Source: an uncultured Pseudomonadales bacterium (GTDB lineage Bacteria > Patescibacteriota > Microgenomatia > UBA1400 > PJMF01). From it: 64,000 nt of DNA. Both the position numbers and the translations under genes were made by a program. The stretch spans positions 45,658 through 109,657 of the forward strand of contig CAYTIA010000001.1 of the NCBI GenBank assembly GCA_964437755.1, in the 5' to 3' direction. This document shows, piece after piece, positions 9,153-60,669 of the stretch (within the stretch, counting starts at the first letter, position 1; each line of letters opens with the position of its first letter). The notes below the pieces were generated by a model that worked only from the letters and a program-made list of their open reading frames with translations, was not told where the DNA came from and searched no databases.

Positions 9153-10874
9153 TTATTTATTCGCATACTTTACTAAATCCTCAGCATAGAAAGGTCTGCC
9201 ATCATAACGACGCAAGCTATCATCCATCTTGATATCAGCTTGTTGTTTAATCCAGTTTTCTCCTTGACCATTAGCATTACCCTCAACCATCACTAGTTTT
9301 TTAGCCTGTTTAGCTAATTTTGTAAATGCTTCAACTGGAAAAGGATACATGCAAGGAAGATGGATAACGTTAATAGTTCCAGGTTTAGCTTGATGAATTG
9401 CCTCGATTAGAACGTTTACTGTTGAACCCCAGCCAACGAATGTTACATCAGCTTCTTTAGGACCAATTAGCTGTGGTTGTGGTATCTCAGCTAGAATCGC
9501 TTCCATTTTTTTGGCTCTCTTATCAACCGAGCTAGCAATCACATCACCTTCTTCAGTAGCAAAACCCCATGGATCATGTTCATAAGAGTTCGCCAAATGT
9601 AAGCCAAATTCTTGACCAGGGATACTTCTTGGGGAGATTCCATTTTTGGTATCTTTATATCTCAAGTAACTTTCATCTGCCGGCAAATCTTCTTTTTCAG
9701 CCATGCTTTGGCGTTCATTGTGATTTTGAGCAGTTGGAGCCTTCATGGTTTGATGAGACTCTAAAATGAATTTGTCCGAGGCAATTATAACCGGAAGCTG
9801 ATACTTTTCTGCCAGGTACATTGCTAATTTTCCAAGATCATAGTGTTCTTGAACTGTTCCTGGAGTTAACACAACTCTTGGGAAATCACCGTGACCGGCA
9901 GTCAAAATAAACTGAAGATCTGCCTGAGCTGTCCAGGTTGGAACACCGCTAGCAGGCCCAGTTCTTTGAGCTTCAAGAACTACTAAAGGAGCTTCTGCAG
10001 TACCAGCAAATGATAAAGCTTCAACCATCAGAGCAAAACCTCCGCCGGAACTTCCTGTCATGGCTCTAGCTCCAGCAATCGAAGCACCGACCGCTTCATT
10101 AATGGCTCCAATTTCATCTTCAACCTGTTTAACAACAATTGGTAACTGATGTTTGTGATCATTTAAAAAGTGAAGCAAGCCAGTGGCAGGAGTCATTGGG
10201 TAAGCACTATAAAACTGCAAACCTCCAGCCAAAGCTCCCATACCAATAGCCTCATTACCATTTAATAAAATCATGTCATCTTTTTGGGGAGTGACACTTA
10301 AAATTGGTTTTAACACTTTTTTGGCTTCTTCGTAGCCAAGATCTAAAGCCTTGAAATTTTTTTCAGTAACCTCTTTTTTCCCCTTAAACTCATCAGCAAT
10401 TACTGCCTTACAGATATCTAGATCAAGTCCCAAAAGATATGCTGACACACCTATTGAGGTGGTGTTGCTAGCTAAGGTTGTGCCAGTTGCTTCTTTTGCC
10501 CAACTTGATAATGGCATAGAAGTGATTTGTTTACCCCATTTATTTGTTGCTTCTTCTGGAACTTTTCCAAAATCAGAGTTAAAAATGATGACAGTTTTAT
10601 CAGTGATTTCATCTTGATGAATCTCGAAACAATCTTGAGTATAAGCAATTAAGACATCTAGATTCTTGGCCTGGCAAGTGGCATTCTCAAAATCAGCATA
10701 AACCTGCCCGGTTTGATGACCTCCTCGAATCAGAGAAGGATACTCTAGATAATTAAATGACTGCATTCCATGGCGCTTGGCTATTCTAGCCATTGTTTTA
10801 GCTGCTAGCATTACACCATGACCTGCTTCTCCGGCAATTTTCCAATTAAAAGAACCATTTTGTGGATTAGACAT
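9153..10874 (-). CDS. korA: 2-oxoacid:ferredoxin oxidoreductase alpha subunit (fused gamma+alpha domains)
   Basis: 573 aa; an N-terminal POR gamma-like domain followed by an alpha domain (GNEAIGMGALAGG...YPMTPAT); directly upstream of korB. Confidence 0.75.
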   Translation of the reverse strand: MSNPQNGSFNWKIAGEAGHGVMLAAKTMARIAKRHGMQSFNYLEYPSLIRGGHQTGQVYADFENATCQAKNLDVLIAYTQDCFEIHQDEITDKTVIIFNSDFGKVPEEATNKWGKQITSMPLSSWAKEATGTTLASNTTSIGVSAYLLGLDLDICKAVIADEFKGKKEVTEKNFKALDLGYEEAKKVLKPILSVTPQKDDMILLNGNEAIGMGALAGGLQFYSAYPMTPATGLLHFLNDHKHQLPIVVKQVEDEIGAINEAVGASIAGARAMTGSSGGGFALMVEALSFAGTAEAPLVVLEAQRTGPASGVPTWTAQADLQFILTAGHGDFPRVVLTPGTVQEHYDLGKLAMYLAEKYQLPVIIASDKFILESHQTMKAPTAQNHNERQSMAEKEDLPADESYLRYKDTKNGISPRSIPGQEFGLHLANSYEHDPWGFATEEGDVIASSVDKRAKKMEAILAEIPQPQLIGPKEADVTFVGWGSTVNVLIEAIHQAKPGTINVIHLPCMYPFPVEAFTKLAKQAKKLVMVEGNANGQGENWIKQQADIKMDDSLRRYDGRPFYAEDLVKYANK

Positions 10875-11608: not shown

Positions 11609-12448
11609 ATGAAAAGAGTGGTAAAGTGTTCATTGTGTTTTTACTATTTTCTGATTATTTTTTTACTAAAATCAAAAGTACATGCAAAAGTACTGATCAA
11701 CGAGGTATTGCCTTATCCCGAGGATGGAATTGAGACAATTGAAATTGTATATGTTCCAGATAATTCTCAGGATCAGAGCATAAATCTTGAGGGATGGAGC
11801 ATTTGGGATGAGCTAGCCACATCTTCCTGTCTTTATGTTTTTGGAAAGGAAACATTGACAGTTGGAGAGTATGTAATTAAAACATTTTCCAATAAACTTA
11901 ATAATTCTGCCGATGGAATTATCATTAAAAACCTAGAGGGAGAAGTGCAAGATTCGTTCTCATATTCTTCATCAGAAAAAGGATTAAGCTATTCTCGATT
12001 AAACTTTATCAATAATGACTTTATTCTCACTGTGCCAACATTAGGAGAAGAAAACATATTTATTGGTCCATCGATCACAACAACACCAACGCCAACCATT
12101 ATCGATCAAGCTACTCAGGAGATTTCCTCAACACCTAACTCACAACAAGATCATGACTCTTCAAAAACAGTGAGGCAAGAAGATGATCAACTAAAAAATG
12201 TAAATACAAACATTAATTTTGATGAGCTTTATCAAGATCAAGCTAGGCTGATTGAGAAAATCTCTAAACTCAAAGATATTATTGAAAAAGATACAAGTGT
12301 TGAGCCTCATTATGCAAAAAAATCCAACAGAGATGACTTTGTCGCTACTCTAGAGTATGGAACAACCTTCATATCAAGTATCGGAGTGGTTAGTGTTATA
12401 ATCGGAGGACTGTTTTTTTTGATTGCCAGTAGACTCATTTATGAATAA
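11609..12448 (+). CDS. Lamin-tail-domain (LTD) surface protein with signal peptide and C-terminal TM anchor
   Basis: VLINEVLPYPEDGIETIEIVYVP...INLEGWSIWDE matches the LTD signature (INEv ... EfIEL ... L.GW.l.D); Thr/Pro linker; C-terminal hydrophobic helix. Confidence 0.55.
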   Translation: MKRVVKCSLCFYYFLIIFLLKSKVHAKVLINEVLPYPEDGIETIEIVYVPDNSQDQSINLEGWSIWDELATSSCLYVFGKETLTVGEYVIKTFSNKLNNSADGIIIKNLEGEVQDSFSYSSSEKGLSYSRLNFINNDFILTVPTLGEENIFIGPSITTTPTPTIIDQATQEISSTPNSQQDHDSSKTVRQEDDQLKNVNTNINFDELYQDQARLIEKISKLKDIIEKDTSVEPHYAKKSNRDDFVATLEYGTTFISSIGVVSVIIGGLFFLIASRLIYE

Positions 12449-50495: not shown

Positions 50496-50930
50496 TTAAT
50501 CTGAAAAAACTTGATTCACCAGCTTGGCGATTCGAGCACCATCGGCACTGTTTCCAACCCGCTGTTTAACCAAACCAATCAAAGGACCCATTTGAATACC
50601 CTCAGACTCTTGTTTAATCTTCTTAATAATTTCTATAATCTGCTCATCACTTAACTGTTGAGGCAAATATTCTTCTAACACTTTTATTTTCTGTTGAGCT
50701 TCTGCAACCAAATCATCTCGATTGCCTTTTTTATAATCCTCGATCGCATCTAGCCACTGCTTAACTGTTTGCGAAACCAGTTTTTCTACCTGCTCATCAT
50801 TTTGAGGGCCATTATCAATTTCTACGTTTTTTATCTTAGCTCTCAACATTCGAATTGTATCCAACCTCAAAGCCTGCTTGTCTCGCATCGCCTGTTTCAT
50901 ATCTTCAATTAATCTTTCTTGGAGTGACAT
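50496..50930 (-). CDS. GatB/YqeY-domain protein
   Basis: MSLQERLIEDMKQAMRDKQALRLDTIRMLRAKIKNVEID...ADGARIAKLVNQ is a textbook YqeY; start moved to the internal Met at 50930 because the longer ORF (to 51101) runs over a tRNA gene. Confidence 0.7.
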   Translation of the reverse strand: MSLQERLIEDMKQAMRDKQALRLDTIRMLRAKIKNVEIDNGPQNDEQVEKLVSQTVKQWLDAIEDYKKGNRDDLVAEAQQKIKVLEEYLPQQLSDEQIIEIIKKIKQESEGIQMGPLIGLVKQRVGNSADGARIAKLVNQVFSD

Positions 50931-51042
50931 AAGAGTTTTTAATATAGTTAATAATTTTGAAACGGTAAGAATTTTTGATTGTGTTTGCGAGGAAGCCTCG
51001 GTGCAAGGCACCGCCAGCGACAAACAAACACAAGCAAAATTG

Positions 51043-51116
51043 TGGACCCGAGCTGACTCGAACAGCTGACCTTTCCGATGTGAACGGAACGCTCTAACCA
51101 ACTGAGCTACGGATCC
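51043..51116 (-). tRNA. tRNA-Val (anticodon CAC)
   Basis: Minus-strand sequence GGATCCGTAGCTCAGTTGGTTAGAGCGTTCCGTTCACATCGGAAAGGTCAGCTGTTCGAGTCAGCTCGGGTCCA folds as a cloverleaf: 7-bp acceptor (one G-U), D-arm GCTC/GAGC, anticodon stem TTCCG/CGGAA with loop TTCACAT, T-arm AGCTG-TTCGAGT-CAGCT; CCA not encoded. Confidence 0.85.
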
Positions 51117-51182: not shown

Positions 51183-51857
51183 GTGGTTTATGTTTCAATA
51201 ATGAACTCTCAATTGCTTTTGCTTTTACACAAAATAATAAAAATATTCTTTCCACCTTTTTGTGTTTGCTGTAAAAAAAATGGATCTGTTTTGTGTTATG
51301 AGTGCTATCAACTTATCCATTTTAATCTACAACCAAAAAACTCCAACTTGATCAATCAAGGTTCTTTAGATCAAGTTTTAATATTGGCTGTTTATCAACC
51401 ACCCATCTCTCAACTAATTAAAGCTCTTAAATATCAACATACTAGAGCAGCAGGTAAAATGTTAGCCCAATTACTATTTTTACATATTAATTTTCCTGAA
51501 TTTGATTTGATAACCAGTGCACCAATCTCAAAAAAAAGACTCAATGAAAGAGGTTTCAACCAAGCTCAGTTAATTGCTGAAGAATTAGCTTCAAAGCTTA
51601 ACAAACCATTCAAAAAGTTATTAAAGAAAATTAAAGACACAAAAAAACAAGCTAGAAGTAGTTTTCAGCAAAGATTAAGTAATCTAAGTGATTGTTTTCG
51701 GGTTGAGTCACCATATAGAGATTTTGTTAAAAATAAAACGATTCTAATTATCGATGATGTAATTAGTACCGGATCTACCCTCAATGAATGTGCTAAAACA
51801 CTAAAAGCATCTGGAGCTAAACAAGTAATCGGCGTAGCTTTGGCTCAAAGTTTGTAG
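51183..51857 (+). CDS. ComF-family phosphoribosyltransferase-domain protein
   Basis: N-terminal Cys cluster CVCCKKNGSVLCYECY plus C-terminal PRTase motif ILIIDDVISTGSTLNECAKTL. Confidence 0.65.
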   Translation: MVYVSIMNSQLLLLLHKIIKIFFPPFCVCCKKNGSVLCYECYQLIHFNLQPKNSNLINQGSLDQVLILAVYQPPISQLIKALKYQHTRAAGKMLAQLLFLHINFPEFDLITSAPISKKRLNERGFNQAQLIAEELASKLNKPFKKLLKKIKDTKKQARSSFQQRLSNLSDCFRVESPYRDFVKNKTILIIDDVISTGSTLNECAKTLKASGAKQVIGVALAQSL

Positions 51858-51880
51858 CCTGTTTATATCTGGTGTATAAT
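51852..51880 (+). promoter_or_regulatory. candidate sigma-70 promoter for ssrA (TTGTAG - 17 nt - TGTATAAT extended -10)
   Basis: Read directly: ttgtag (51852-51857), a 17-nt spacer ending in TG, then tataat (51875-51880); 30 nt upstream of the mature tmRNA 5' end, consistent with a processed precursor. Confidence 0.45.
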
Positions 51881-51910: not shown

Positions 51911-52465
51911 GGGGATGTATTGCATCGACGTGTCAGCACATTAACAACTGCAGACCATCTTTTATCAAAAGATGTAAAACAGGATAAAAACATAACTGCA
52001 AACAAAATTCGCAGCATGGTTGCATCAGCTGGACAGGCTCTCGCTAGCCTTACCCAACTTGTTGGAACCCCAGCTCTCGCTTACAACGCGTAAGCTGGCA
52101 TCTACTCATTTCTTCTCACTGATGAGAGTGGGTAGGTGAAAAACCAGTCAGTGTGCAAAATGATAGATTCATGCATCTATCATTTTCAAGAAATAGTATG
52201 GCGGCAAAAGAAAGGTTTGTTTATTTACCACTTTTGCTAGAAGCAAAAATAAGACCCGTTGCGTAATTAGAATTAGAATAATTATTGTTTACCCCGCTAA
52301 GCAGGGCGATAGTAGTTGTAACTACTTGAGGAGTAGAAAACAATGCAAAATGCGCAAAAAATGCATTAAGTAACTAATTTTAATTACGCAATGGGTCTAA
52401 ACTACGTCTGTAGAAGTTGTTCTGAAGCTTGATAGCGGACAGGGGGTCATACCCCCTCATCTCCA
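51911..52465 (+). ncRNA. ssrA: tmRNA (ssrA), about 555 nt, standard one-piece
   Basis: 5' GGGGATGTATTGCATCGACG parallels the E. coli tmRNA 5' end GGGGCUGAUUCUGGAUUCGACGG; 3' GGACAGGGGGTCATACCCCCTCATCTCCACA gives a T-arm plus a 7-bp acceptor pairing with the 5' end, including the G3:U70 alanine identity pair; resume codon GCA at 51998 preceded by U(-5) A(-4) as in E. coli; the tag frame runs to TAA at 52091. Confidence 0.75.
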
Positions 52466-52494
52466 CACGCATAAAGCCTTTTGTTAATATGTTT

Positions 52495-52914
52495 CTAACT
52501 TTTTTTTGTTTTATTACCTTGTTTGTCCATCATTAATGTGCCACCATTAGTTTGTTCAGGGAAGCATGTTGCCACCTCGTTATTTCTAATAAACGCTCCG
52601 ACTTTTTTTAAACCATATTTTTTATATCCAACAACTACTCTTAATGCATTACCAACTGCTTGCACCCCATAAACAGCTGAAGGTTTTCTGTTTATATACT
52701 TAAACCATTCGGTCTCGATAGTTCTAACAACCTCAGATATATCCCCAGCACTCATATGTCTTGGAAATAAACTACCTTGCCCAAATTCAAAACCACTGGC
52801 ATGAAAAAGCTTTTCTCCGGCATAAAGATGGCGCGACGAGATATGTTTGCGATTAACGCCAGTGTCAGCATAAGCTCTTTTTGAAGTTAATTCTGGATAT
52901 TCTTTTTTTCGCAT
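52495..52914 (-). CDS. hypothetical protein (139 aa) directly flanking the tmRNA 3' end
   Basis: Intact ORF MRKKEYPELTSKRAYADTGVNRKHISSRHLYAGEKLFHASGFEFGQGSLFPRHMS...; no family confidently recognised. Confidence 0.35.
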   Translation of the reverse strand: MRKKEYPELTSKRAYADTGVNRKHISSRHLYAGEKLFHASGFEFGQGSLFPRHMSAGDISEVVRTIETEWFKYINRKPSAVYGVQAVGNALRVVVGYKKYGLKKVGAFIRNNEVATCFPEQTNGGTLMMDKQGNKTKKS

Positions 52915-59601: not shown

Positions 59602-60669
59602 TTAATATTTTGGCAAAAAGATTTTTGAGTTTTCTTTGGTAATAATAACTTTTTCAAAACCTCTTCCAACGATAATTCTGGCTGCTTTTCTTACTGCTCC
59701 CTCCAGAGTTCTTTGTAAAGTACGAATACCTGCATCAAAACCTAGAGGTCTAACCATAGTTGGCCACACATCTTCATTAACTATCAGTTGTCCAGGTTTT
59801 AACCCAGCCTTTTTTAATAAACTTGGAAAAATATACTCTTTACCTATAACCATTTTTTCATGATCAGTATAAGAAGGCATTGTTATCTTTTCTAACCTAT
59901 CCATAACTGCTGTAAGAATCTTACCCGTATTATTGGCGGTTGCTAAAAAGATTGCTTTACTTAAATCAACTGGATAATCAATATAATTATCAACAAAAGA
60001 ATTGTTTTGAGCTGGATCTAATAACTCTACTAAAACACCCATAATCTCTTGATTGGCCTCATCAGAAGCACGATCAATCTCATCAAGTAATATTATTGGA
60101 TTTCTAACACCAGAGTCACACAAGCCCTTTACAACTTTCCCTGGTTCACTGCCCAACAACAATCTTGAGTTGCCCCTTAACTCTTTAGCTGAGCCCATGC
60201 CACCAAAAGGAATTCTTACTAATTTTCTTTCTAATGCCTCTGCTAAAGCATATGCAAAAGTTGTTTTACCGGTACCCACTAATCCCACTAATAACAAAAT
60301 TGGAGCTCTAAAACCTTCATCCTGAAAATTTCTTTCTCTTAAAGCAATCACAGAAATATACTCTAAAAAACGATCCTTTATTTGTTGCATTCCGTAATGA
60401 TGCTTGTTAAAAATCTCCTTGGCCACCTCTATATCTAAACGATCTTTGGTTTCATTTTCCCAAGGAATCTTTAAAACCCACTCAATATACTTACTCACCA
60501 TTTCATGTTTGGTATCATAGCTACCAAGCTCAATGCTTCTTTCAAGAGCCACGATATCACGCTGAGCTTTATAGCGAAGCTCCTCAGGCATTTTAGCTTG
60601 CTGAACTTTTTGCTTTAAATCAAAGATCTCCTTTTGGAGAATATTTTGAAAATCTGTTTTTTGAGTCAT
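59602..60669 (-). CDS. orphan Lon-protease core fragment: Lon linker helix + AAA+ ATPase module only (no N-terminal LAN domain, no S16 protease domain)
   Basis: IPWENETKDRLDIEVAKEIFNKHHYGMQQIKDRFLEYISV aligns with the E. coli Lon linker [40 protein letters not shown]. Downstream parallels: Walker A LVGLVGTGKTT, Walker B ILLDEIDR, VLVELLDPAQNNSFVDNYIDYPVDLSKAIFLATAN and sensor-2 GIRTLQRTLE. The protein ends after the AAA+ lid and no DGPSAG-type protease motif exists nearby. Confidence 0.6.
   Translation of the reverse strand: MTQKTDFQNILQKEIFDLKQKVQQAKMPEELRYKAQRDIVALERSIELGSYDTKHEMVSKYIEWVLKIPWENETKDRLDIEVAKEIFNKHHYGMQQIKDRFLEYISVIALRERNFQDEGFRAPILLLVGLVGTGKTTFAYALAEALERKLVRIPFGGMGSAKELRGNSRLLLGSEPGKVVKGLCDSGVRNPIILLDEIDRASDEANQEIMGVLVELLDPAQNNSFVDNYIDYPVDLSKAIFLATANNTGKILTAVMDRLEKITMPSYTDHEKMVIGKEYIFPSLLKKAGLKPGQLIVNEDVWPTMVRPLGFDAGIRTLQRTLEGAVRKAARIIVGRGFEKVIITKENSKIFLPKY

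Follow-up and report, generated by a model that had tools for sequence, protein, structure and literature searches.

A 64-kb stretch of contig CAYTIA010000001.1, called the window throughout, holds a gene for transfer-messenger RNA (tmRNA, ssrA) in the gap that follows comF. It is a genuine single-copy, one-piece tmRNA gene of a bacterium of the Microgenomates group (Patescibacteria, or candidate phyla radiation, CPR), divergent yet intact, and it belongs to the tmRNA family rather than to a new kind of system. Taken together, the tmRNA identity, a long tag found across the whole clade, and an insertion into pseudoknot 4 that resembles a miniature inverted-repeat transposable element (MITE) make up a reading that we regard as likely correct. 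The tmRNA would enter stalled ribosomes with SmpB and take over the nascent chain, after which its own short frame would be translated, appending a degradation tag.

The Rfam tmRNA model RF00023 matches positions 51911-52468 of the plus strand over its full length (model positions 1-374) at 62.2 bits, compared to a gathering score of 47 (E 6e-22); no other Rfam match occurs in the window. An earlier note, made from the letters alone, had called a one-piece tmRNA here and had allowed that covariance models might fail to score the region; the model scored it. The gap of about 640 bp in which that note placed the gene does hold it and measures 637 bp, from the end of comF at 51857 to the start of the next open reading frame (ORF) at 52495.

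51911-52465, plus strand: tmRNA (ssrA) gene, from the mature 5' G1 through the discriminator A (the Rfam match ends at 52468)

The total length is 555 nt (558 nt as matched by Rfam). Both termini named in the earlier note were recovered, with the 5' end GGGGATGTATTGCATCGACG beginning at 51911 (GGGGATG) and the acceptor 3' strand CATCTCC occupying 52458-52464, followed at 52465 by the discriminator A. No CCA is encoded; the sequence goes on with CAC. Identical copies of the region occur on four short contigs from independent ENA/JGI assemblies, showing that the tmRNA is not an assembly artefact. The window has a G+C content of ~36% and encodes ribosomal proteins, rpoBC and elongation factor (EF) genes, and the graded homologues of its ComF include those of Candidatus Woesebacteria and of Microgenomates bacterium 39_7, a member of Candidatus Microgenomatota in the Patescibacteria group.

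Since the gene order yqeY / tRNA-Val / comF / ssrA / NTP-transferase / ftsK is conserved in the clade, relatives were gathered by fetching contigs that encode comF homologues, plus one metagenome scan with the pseudoknot-1 pattern. This yielded 17 distinct clade tmRNAs, every one above the Rfam threshold (56-99 bits). Fourteen of them are 399-426 nt long, and the long ones are those of the window (558 nt as matched) and of loci L004 (574 nt) and L111 (576 nt). By identity of the ComF protein and of flanking-gene DNA the window groups with L085 (84-90% at the nucleotide level), with a second subclade made up of L004, L111 and L110 (88-91% ComF identity). Alignment A3 comprises 15 distinct clade tmRNAs, 13 of them insert-free, with L110 and L111 lying outside it; the pairing and covariation statistics given below were computed on the 13 insert-free relatives. 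A contig search with the ComF alignment returned only distant ComF homologues (26-40% identity, other phyla) and no clade relatives, and four CPR loci among these distant matches had no tmRNA beside comF.

We scored a hand-written structure consisting of P1, P2, four pseudoknots, the stop-codon hairpin and the T-arm against the alignment, using as controls the same structure with its 3' partners slid by 1-3 columns.

51911-51917, plus strand: acceptor stem P1, 5' strand GGGGAUG, which includes G3 of the G3:U pair; pairs with 52458-52464
51956-51988, plus strand: pseudoknot 1, stem 1 CAUCU/AGAUG, stem 2 UUUAUC/GAUAAA
52079-52095, plus strand: stop-codon hairpin GCUUAC-AACGC-GUAAGC (helix 5 equivalent), from the sequence and the Rfam alignment
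52099-52153, plus strand: pseudoknot 2, stem 2 ACUGA/UCAGU
52157-52201, plus strand: pseudoknot 3, from covariation
52204-52252, plus strand: pseudoknot 4, stem 1 GCAAAAG/CUUUUGC, stem 2 5' strand GGUUUGUUU (52214-52222)
52406-52440, plus strand: P2 3' strands (GUCUGUAG ... CGGAC), which join the pseudoknot ring to the tRNA-like domain
52441-52457, plus strand: T-arm AGGGGG-UCAUA-CCCCCU with a non-canonical loop, from the Rfam alignment

Standard pairs fill 96.4% of cells in this structure compared to 40-46% in the slid controls, and 32 pairs have changed on both sides compared to 9-12. The eight pseudoknot stems are 85-100% paired and five of them contain pairs with changes on both sides, so that the covariation analysis suggested in the earlier note supports all four pseudoknots. 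In pseudoknot 1 stem 1 is invariant and stem 2 has two pairs changed on both sides, with 98.7-100% of cells paired. Six stem 1 pairs of pseudoknot 2 have changed on both sides and its stem 2 is 98.5% paired, while in pseudoknot 3 such changes affect all seven pairs of stem 1 and three of the five in stem 2. Pseudoknot 4 again shows changes on both sides in 7/7 stem 1 pairs, and its stem 2 is 96.6% paired. All seven P1 pairs are invariant, and the G:U at position 3 that the earlier note had pointed out is present in 13 of 13 relatives, where it would serve alanine charging. P2 is 99-100% paired with four pairs changed on both sides. The stop-codon hairpin is just 79% paired across the relatives because tag ends vary in length. 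A pairing of GUCAGUGUG with GCAUGGC proposed by RNAalifold was dropped, since two pseudoknot stems, which are beyond what RNAalifold predicts, fit the covariation better. The window tmRNA itself satisfies 98 of the 99 family base pairs, which suggests that it is probably functional and speaks against a pseudogene.

The same alignments bear on the tag, which the earlier note had read as 31 residues from a GCA resume codon at 51998 to a TAA at 52091, ending in LAYNA.

51998-52093, plus strand: tag reading frame, 31 codons ANKIRSMVASAGQALASLTQLVGTPALAYNA; resume codon GCA at 51998-52000, stop codon TAA at 52091-52093

On the evidence of the aligned sequences, the predicted long tag is real and is a trait of the clade rather than a peculiarity of this genome. 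Each of the 15 distinct clade tmRNAs of A3 keeps the frame free of stops for 26-35 codons, while the other two frames meet stops in most of them. Codon differences within the tag fall most often on the third position (1375, compared to 999 and 885 at positions one and two), and the synonymous share of differing codon pairs is 0.28 in the tag frame vs 0.16 and 0.05 in the shifted frames. Of 59 gap runs in a codon-blind alignment of the tag region, 50 are divisible by three, and those of 4 and 5 nt probably lie past the earlier stops of shorter tags. Conserved motifs mark both ends of the tag, [AV]NK[IVM]xS.VA at the N-terminus and P-A-[YL]-A(-x-A) at the C-terminus. Further tags of the clade are VNKVNSLVASAKEAVTGFFSPVATPAYAYA (L088), VNKIVNRIADGVQSIFGRATAPAYAYA (L087) and VDSIRSAVKSSVKTLASSVASWFMPEQGLAPAYLA (L091); the LAYNA end of the window tag stands beside clade tags that end in AYAYA, PAYA, AYLA or ALA.

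At the start of the frame, the GCA resume codon is preceded by U(-5) and A(-4), and none of the 15 sequences departs from A(-4), C(-2), U(-1) or G(+1). The Rfam alignment sets the resume codon at 51998 with top posterior probability and counts 51 nt within the tag as inserted with respect to the consensus, and ARAGORN reports the identical 31-residue tag once the gene has been repaired in silico as described below. The placement further downstream, with a short tag, that the earlier note had named as a possible outcome did not appear, and its resume codon, upstream bases and tag were all reproduced. The resume codon itself alternates within the clade, being GCA (Ala) in 7 and GUC (Val) in 8 distinct sequences.

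The modal tag length is 10 amino acids among 97,179 curated tmRNAs (PMC11915505), and a published maximum tag length was not found in the literature. A close precedent is the 27-residue tag of Mycoplasma, called 'unusual long', which is read by Lon in a host without ClpXP (PMC8403727, PMC3985003). As cited in those two papers, the Mycoplasma/Mesoplasma tag of Gur and Sauer (2008) is alike in its unusual length (27 residues there, 26-35 here), in occurring in a reduced genome, and in a C-terminus that is not ALAA and sets an aromatic residue next to alanines. The window tag, with 31 codons and its LAYNA end, thus shows the features of a long tag of the Mycoplasma type (far more than 10-14 residues, non-ALAA end). 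The tags are unrelated in sequence, however, and a shift to Lon in the present clade would be by analogy alone. On that analogy the tag may be read not by ClpXP but by another protease, such as Lon or FtsH, and a changed protease specificity seems a reasonable idea. Pfam scans of 20 ORFs in the 64-kb window found none of smpB, rnc, clpX, clpP, lon and ftsH. At 59602-60669 on the minus strand the window encodes a 355-residue AAA+ ATPase with a Lon-type lid and no protease domain, which is found at the same position in L004 and is possibly relevant to the fate of tagged proteins.

The long tag accounts for ~63 nt of the excess tmRNA length and is common to all relatives. The earlier note had assigned the extra length to the pseudoknot region, and this holds for an insertion of 145 nt there but not for the part due to the tag.

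52253-52397, plus strand: insertion, 145 nt, GACCC...GGGUC, splitting the 3' strand of pseudoknot 4 stem 2
52252-52276, plus strand: 5' arm of the basal helix, 25 bp; pairs with 52374-52398; fold z = -9.6
52349-52367, plus strand: small hairpin AAUGCG-CAAAAAA-UGCAUU inside the insertion, conserved in L004 and L111
52374-52398, plus strand: 3' arm of the basal helix; pairs with 52252-52276

Insert-free relatives run straight through this site (...GCAAAAAUAAAC|UAYGUCUGUAG), where GGUUUGUUU of pseudoknot 4 stem 2 pairs with AAAUAA^ACU (^ marks the insertion point). In the window, AAAUAA (52247-52252) is separated from ACU (52401-52403), which lies beyond the insertion. The insert opens with the 17-mer GACCCGTTGCGTAATTA at 52253-52269, and an inverted copy with one G:U-compatible mismatch stands at 52381-52397, with 0.04 such matches expected by chance. 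The 17-bp helix of the earlier note is therefore present, but its coordinates were 1-2 nt off and it forms the base of a helix that really spans 25 bp. The 159-nt stretch folds at -59.6 kcal/mol (z = -9.6). The insert is 162 nt long in L004 and L111, and in L004 the basal helix reaches 28 bp (z = -10.7).

Comparing the window with the L004/L111 version, 5 of the 25 shared pairs in the basal helix differ (two by double and three by single changes) and all keep pairing; the small hairpin keeps five of five pairs, with one change from G:U to A:U. Within the interior, the two versions cannot be aligned over the 5' half, and they are ~85-89% identical over the 3' half. TAA flanks the insert on both sides in the window (52250-52252 and 52398-52400), and the corresponding flanks in L004 are TAAA and TATA. 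No Rfam family was found in the region 52230-52420 at E = 0.01, and readings of the insert as an intron, a ribozyme or a known small RNA were rejected, as an Rfam search on it with a permissive E value gave noise alone. In the insert, a Shine-Dalgarno-like GAGGAG or AAGGAG precedes a mini-ORF in the window (52355-52378) and in L004 (~10490-10510). These mini-ORFs, MRKKCIK* and MHKRCI* respectively, were treated as chance, since their start codons are unaligned, no ORF is conserved across the copies, and the copy at a further locus, L113, keeps neither start nor frame.

The insert is found in 3 of the 17 distinct clade tmRNAs, those of the window, L004 and L111. It is absent from 13 of the 15 tmRNAs of A3, including that of L085, and from L110, so that genes with and without it occur in both subclades. 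The three inserts were combined into a covariance model, which matched a second locus at L113 744-869 with 52.7 bits (E 2.5e-11; L113 and L107 share a contig), and blastn aligned L113 726-868 at 69% over 146 nt (E 5.6e-15) with the same AGAC terminus. This copy is intergenic, between a gene for 92 residues and an HTH_25 gene, in a region of 387 nt that measures 73-306 nt in relatives, and the tmRNA of the L107/L113 genome is insert-free. The patchy distribution and the copy at an unrelated site indicate that the insert is probably a member of a dispersed-repeat family and not an intrinsic domain of the tmRNA. The earlier note had suggested a lineage-specific insertion; an insertion it is, but its distribution is narrower, since even very close relatives differ in having it, and a homologous copy lies elsewhere. 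The insert is best described as a MITE-like palindromic element, with long inverted ends, small size, no ORF and a possible target duplication. The covariance model found no further copies beyond L113 in ~200 kb of clade loci, none were found by blastn and a pattern search of the gathered sequences, and searches of viral contigs and of phage and plasmid collections gave none.

Directly after the repeat copy, L113 878-990 (minus strand) contains four consecutive perfect hairpins with stems of 8-12 bp, which may be further palindromic repeats or an unrecognised structured RNA.

At the insertion site the insert-free alleles of L085 and L110 have a common junction, AAAAUAAAA|UAUGUC, whereas the insert-bearing alleles keep the AAAC UACGUC of the outgroup. 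The A...U junction state of L085 and L110 recurs in the distant L087, so a parallel change at the junction is possible.

Several points weigh against the overall reading of an intact tmRNA with a clade-wide long tag and a MITE-like insertion. The presence and absence of the insert require two precise losses (L085, L110), two gains at the same site, or recombination. The L113 copy is the single one found outside a tmRNA, is diverged and has lost the outermost inverted repeat, and with filters off the covariance model found no other across the 64-kb window and 20 kb of L004. Being short and rich in A and T, the flanking duplication could be chance. When the window is compared with L004, identity is higher in the 3' half of the insert (~85%) than in comF DNA (73%), and this conservation, together with the compensatory changes, could mean that the segment has acquired a function. 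The T-loop deviates at three positions from the tmRNA consensus, and smpB was not found among the scanned window ORFs, so that it lies outside the window if present. Finally, function, processing and tagging of this tmRNA are all things that we infer from its sequence.

How an insert of this size might be tolerated can be outlined. It lies ~160 nt downstream of the stop codon and so does not need to pass through the decoding centre. Pseudoknots 2-4 are dispensable or replaceable in vitro, and two-piece tmRNAs exist in which a coding piece and an acceptor piece are separated by a break between the coding and acceptor parts (PMC3985003). With these pseudoknots dispensable and natural breaks in the same region, the insertion site would be tolerant. 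The duplicated TAA would let the interrupted stem re-form around a three-way junction, and selection would have kept the long stem of the insert paired, either to fold the extra RNA away from the pseudoknot ring or to serve cleavage by a double-strand-specific RNase.

In the second case the insert would be excised at the 25-bp stem by RNase III and not religated, leaving a mature tmRNA of two base-paired pieces, coding and acceptor, from a non-permuted gene. This explanation competes over the fate of the insert and not over its origin, and we consider it possible though doubtful. A near-perfect duplex of 25-28 bp is the length that such enzymes need, its pairing is kept by compensatory changes, and the resulting break would match the region of the natural two-piece break, after the coding part and before the P2 3' strand (PMC3985003). 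Short non-intron insertions are moreover common at known RNase III intervening-sequence (IVS) sites in CPR 23S rRNA genes (PMC11270868). On the other side, no rnc was found among the 20 scanned window ORFs, the stem may be kept merely to prevent the insert from misfolding the pseudoknots, and the interior of the insert is partly conserved, which would be unneeded in an excised spacer. Somewhat less likely still is the full proposition that this lineage makes a split two-piece tmRNA from a standard-order gene via a mobile palindromic element.

It is improbable that the insert is instead an evolved functional extra arm, an expansion segment such as a protein-binding arm that is retained in the mature RNA. 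The helix is indeed maintained by compensatory changes, the 3' half and small hairpin are conserved at ~85-89% between the two subclades, and the remainder of the tmRNA is intact. However, the closest sisters in both subclades (L085, L110) and 12 more relatives lack the insert, its 5' half is unalignable between the two versions, a homologous copy sits in an unrelated intergenic region, and no Rfam family matches it, all of which argue against such an arm.

Two further alternatives are very unlikely. A disrupted pseudogene, in which the insertion inactivated the tmRNA and the cell uses another rescue route or another ssrA copy, would account for the broken pseudoknot stem and the non-canonical T-loop, but not for the 98 of 99 intact pairs and open tag frame, the 96.6% identity to the insert-free L085 gene outside the insert, the presence of the odd T-loop in every clade member including insert-free ones, or the persistence of the insert-bearing allele in two diverged subclades. 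That the real tag is short, with resumption further downstream and the 31-codon frame an accident of A/T-rich RNA, is just as hard to credit: the middle of the tag varies freely and 3/3 differences between the window and L004 are non-synonymous, but the frame stays open in 15/15 although its length varies, residue conservation sets in with the very first codons and the context from -4 to +1 does not change, the synonymous excess occurs in the tag frame only, and two independent programs agree on the position of the resume codon.

Preferring, then, an intact tmRNA that carries a MITE-like element, we turn to its tRNA-like domain. The T-loop reads GUCAUAC (UUCAUUA in some clade members) compared to the Rfam consensus UUCGAuU, and a canonical T-arm with a 5-bp stem and a 7-nt UUCGAnU loop was not found. 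The pair closing the loop switches from G-C to U-A in L087 and L099, and this covariation of the first and last bases suggests that the T-arm is probably a 6-bp stem with a 5-nt loop. All 15 tmRNAs of A3 have the odd T-loop, the insert-free ones included, consistent with a clade trait and not decay. The D-loop region (51918-51930) reads UUGCAUCGAC and is without the usual GG, pointing to a tRNA-like elbow that is non-canonical clade-wide.

ARAGORN reported no tmRNA in the window nor in 14 related loci, and found the window gene only after the T-loop had been made canonical and the insert removed in silico. The program thus misses the whole clade because of the non-canonical T-loop, and in the window the insert contributes too. 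Of the two tmRNA searches named in the earlier note, that with the Rfam covariance model succeeded, whereas ARAGORN stayed silent until both features had been edited. Since ARAGORN fails on the gene, the description of it as unannotated in that note is plausible for pipelines that rely on this program.

A possible promoter lies upstream of the gene.

51875-51880, plus strand: TATAAT, a -10-like box ~30 nt ahead of the mature 5' end; TGGTGTATAAT is shared with the four closest relatives

A consensus promoter scan was silent on this box because a good -35 is missing. The box would be the promoter of a precursor that is trimmed by RNase P, as judged from its position and conservation.

Compared with the standard one-piece tmRNA (RF00023, E. 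coli SsrA type), the window gene has the G3:U acceptor pair, P2, four pseudoknots, a full-length model match, a resume codon with A(-4) and a stop codon in a hairpin. It differs in its tag of 31 codons vs ~10, its length of 555 nt vs ~350-400, the insertion in pseudoknot 4, the GUCAUAC T-loop vs UUCGAnU, a D-loop without the GG pair, and the lack of an encoded CCA. All testable defining features of a tmRNA are present except the canonical T-loop. Correia, ERIC and Rickettsia palindromic elements are MITE-like palindromic repeats of bacteria, and the insert resembles such repeats in its length of ~150 nt, long terminal inverted repeat, lack of an ORF, possible short target duplication, occurrence at more than one genomic site and insertion within a transcribed gene. 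Its complementary ends of 25-28 bp, size of 145-162 nt and lack of an ORF agree with a MITE-like structure, but it is known from two sites so far, with no transposase partner found, and shows no similarity to named families.

Other interruptions of tmRNA genes compare less closely. Group I introns, known in 883 tmRNA sequences and all in the T-loop (PMC11915505), are likewise foreign sequence with a patchy taxonomic distribution, but the insert lies in pseudoknot 4, is only 145 nt long, has a long inverted repeat at its borders and fits none of the intron models, so that neither the site nor the signature of a group I intron was found. The remaining known interruptions are the intervening sequences of permuted genes and a repetitive element inside one of them, and the authors of that survey noted that interruptions at other sites may have been missed (PMC11915505). 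Two-piece tmRNAs, which come from permuted genes in alpha- and beta-proteobacteria and cyanobacteria, also have a discontinuity or extra sequence between the coding and acceptor parts, whereas the gene order here is standard and any cut in the RNA would be hypothetical.

Outside tmRNA, short non-intron insertions are common in CPR rRNA genes (PMC11270868). These insertions and the RNase III-processed IVS of 23S rRNA (PMC11270868, PMC4990558) are alike in being <200 nt, ORF-less, closed by a stem, located in an essential structural RNA gene and sporadic among relatives, and the CPR cases come from the same bacterial radiation as the window; the difference is that the host gene here is tmRNA and not rRNA. 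The long near-perfect basal stem expected of an excised IVS is present, with 25 bp in the window and 28 bp in L004. A full-text literature search found no papers on tmRNA tags or inserts in Patescibacteria. The tmRNA database holds 5,252 standard-form Patescibacteria genes, and some clade tmRNAs may already be catalogued there without comment. What is new is a palindromic repeat element inside pseudoknot 4 of a standard-form tmRNA gene.

The surroundings of the gene yielded some additional observations. A tRNA-Val(CAC) at 51042-51116 (minus strand), between yqeY and comF, is conserved clade-wide. The mechanically called ORF 50496-51101 overlaps it, indicating that the true start of yqeY lies further in, at ~50930. 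The region 3' of ssrA is variable across the clade. In the window a 139-residue ORF adjoins ssrA at 52495-52914 (minus strand), which is present in L085, missing or replaced in other relatives, and has no Pfam, PHROGs or PADLOC match. In L004 (10605-11891), and also in L111 (1414-2626), a 352-residue ORF directly follows the tmRNA 3' end; it is absent from the window (52469-52494 compared), L085 and L110, and Pfam, PHROGs and PADLOC likewise gave nothing for it. The L004 tmRNA ends in 9 nt (CATCTCCAC) that are repeated at 11883, ~1.28 kb downstream, resembling the integration scar of a small ssrA island, and no integrase was seen at this putative island.

For annotation, these results mean that ARAGORN-based pipelines would overlook ssrA throughout this Microgenomates clade. 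The long tag, in a second genome-reduced group after the mycoplasmas, offers an independent test of the link between tags and loss of ClpXP, which would ask whether long aromatic-ended tags accompany ClpXP loss and dependence on Lon or FtsH. In the largest tmRNA survey (PMC11915505) every interruption found lay in the T-loop, and the one in pseudoknot 4 is a clear case elsewhere. A retained insert would reveal what load of additional RNA the pseudoknot ring can bear on the ribosome. Excision would be a new way to a two-piece tmRNA, a further and mechanistically different route to the split form that is polymorphic among sister species whose tmRNA is still one-piece. In either case, the insert-free sister alleles are a natural comparison for the insert-bearing gene.

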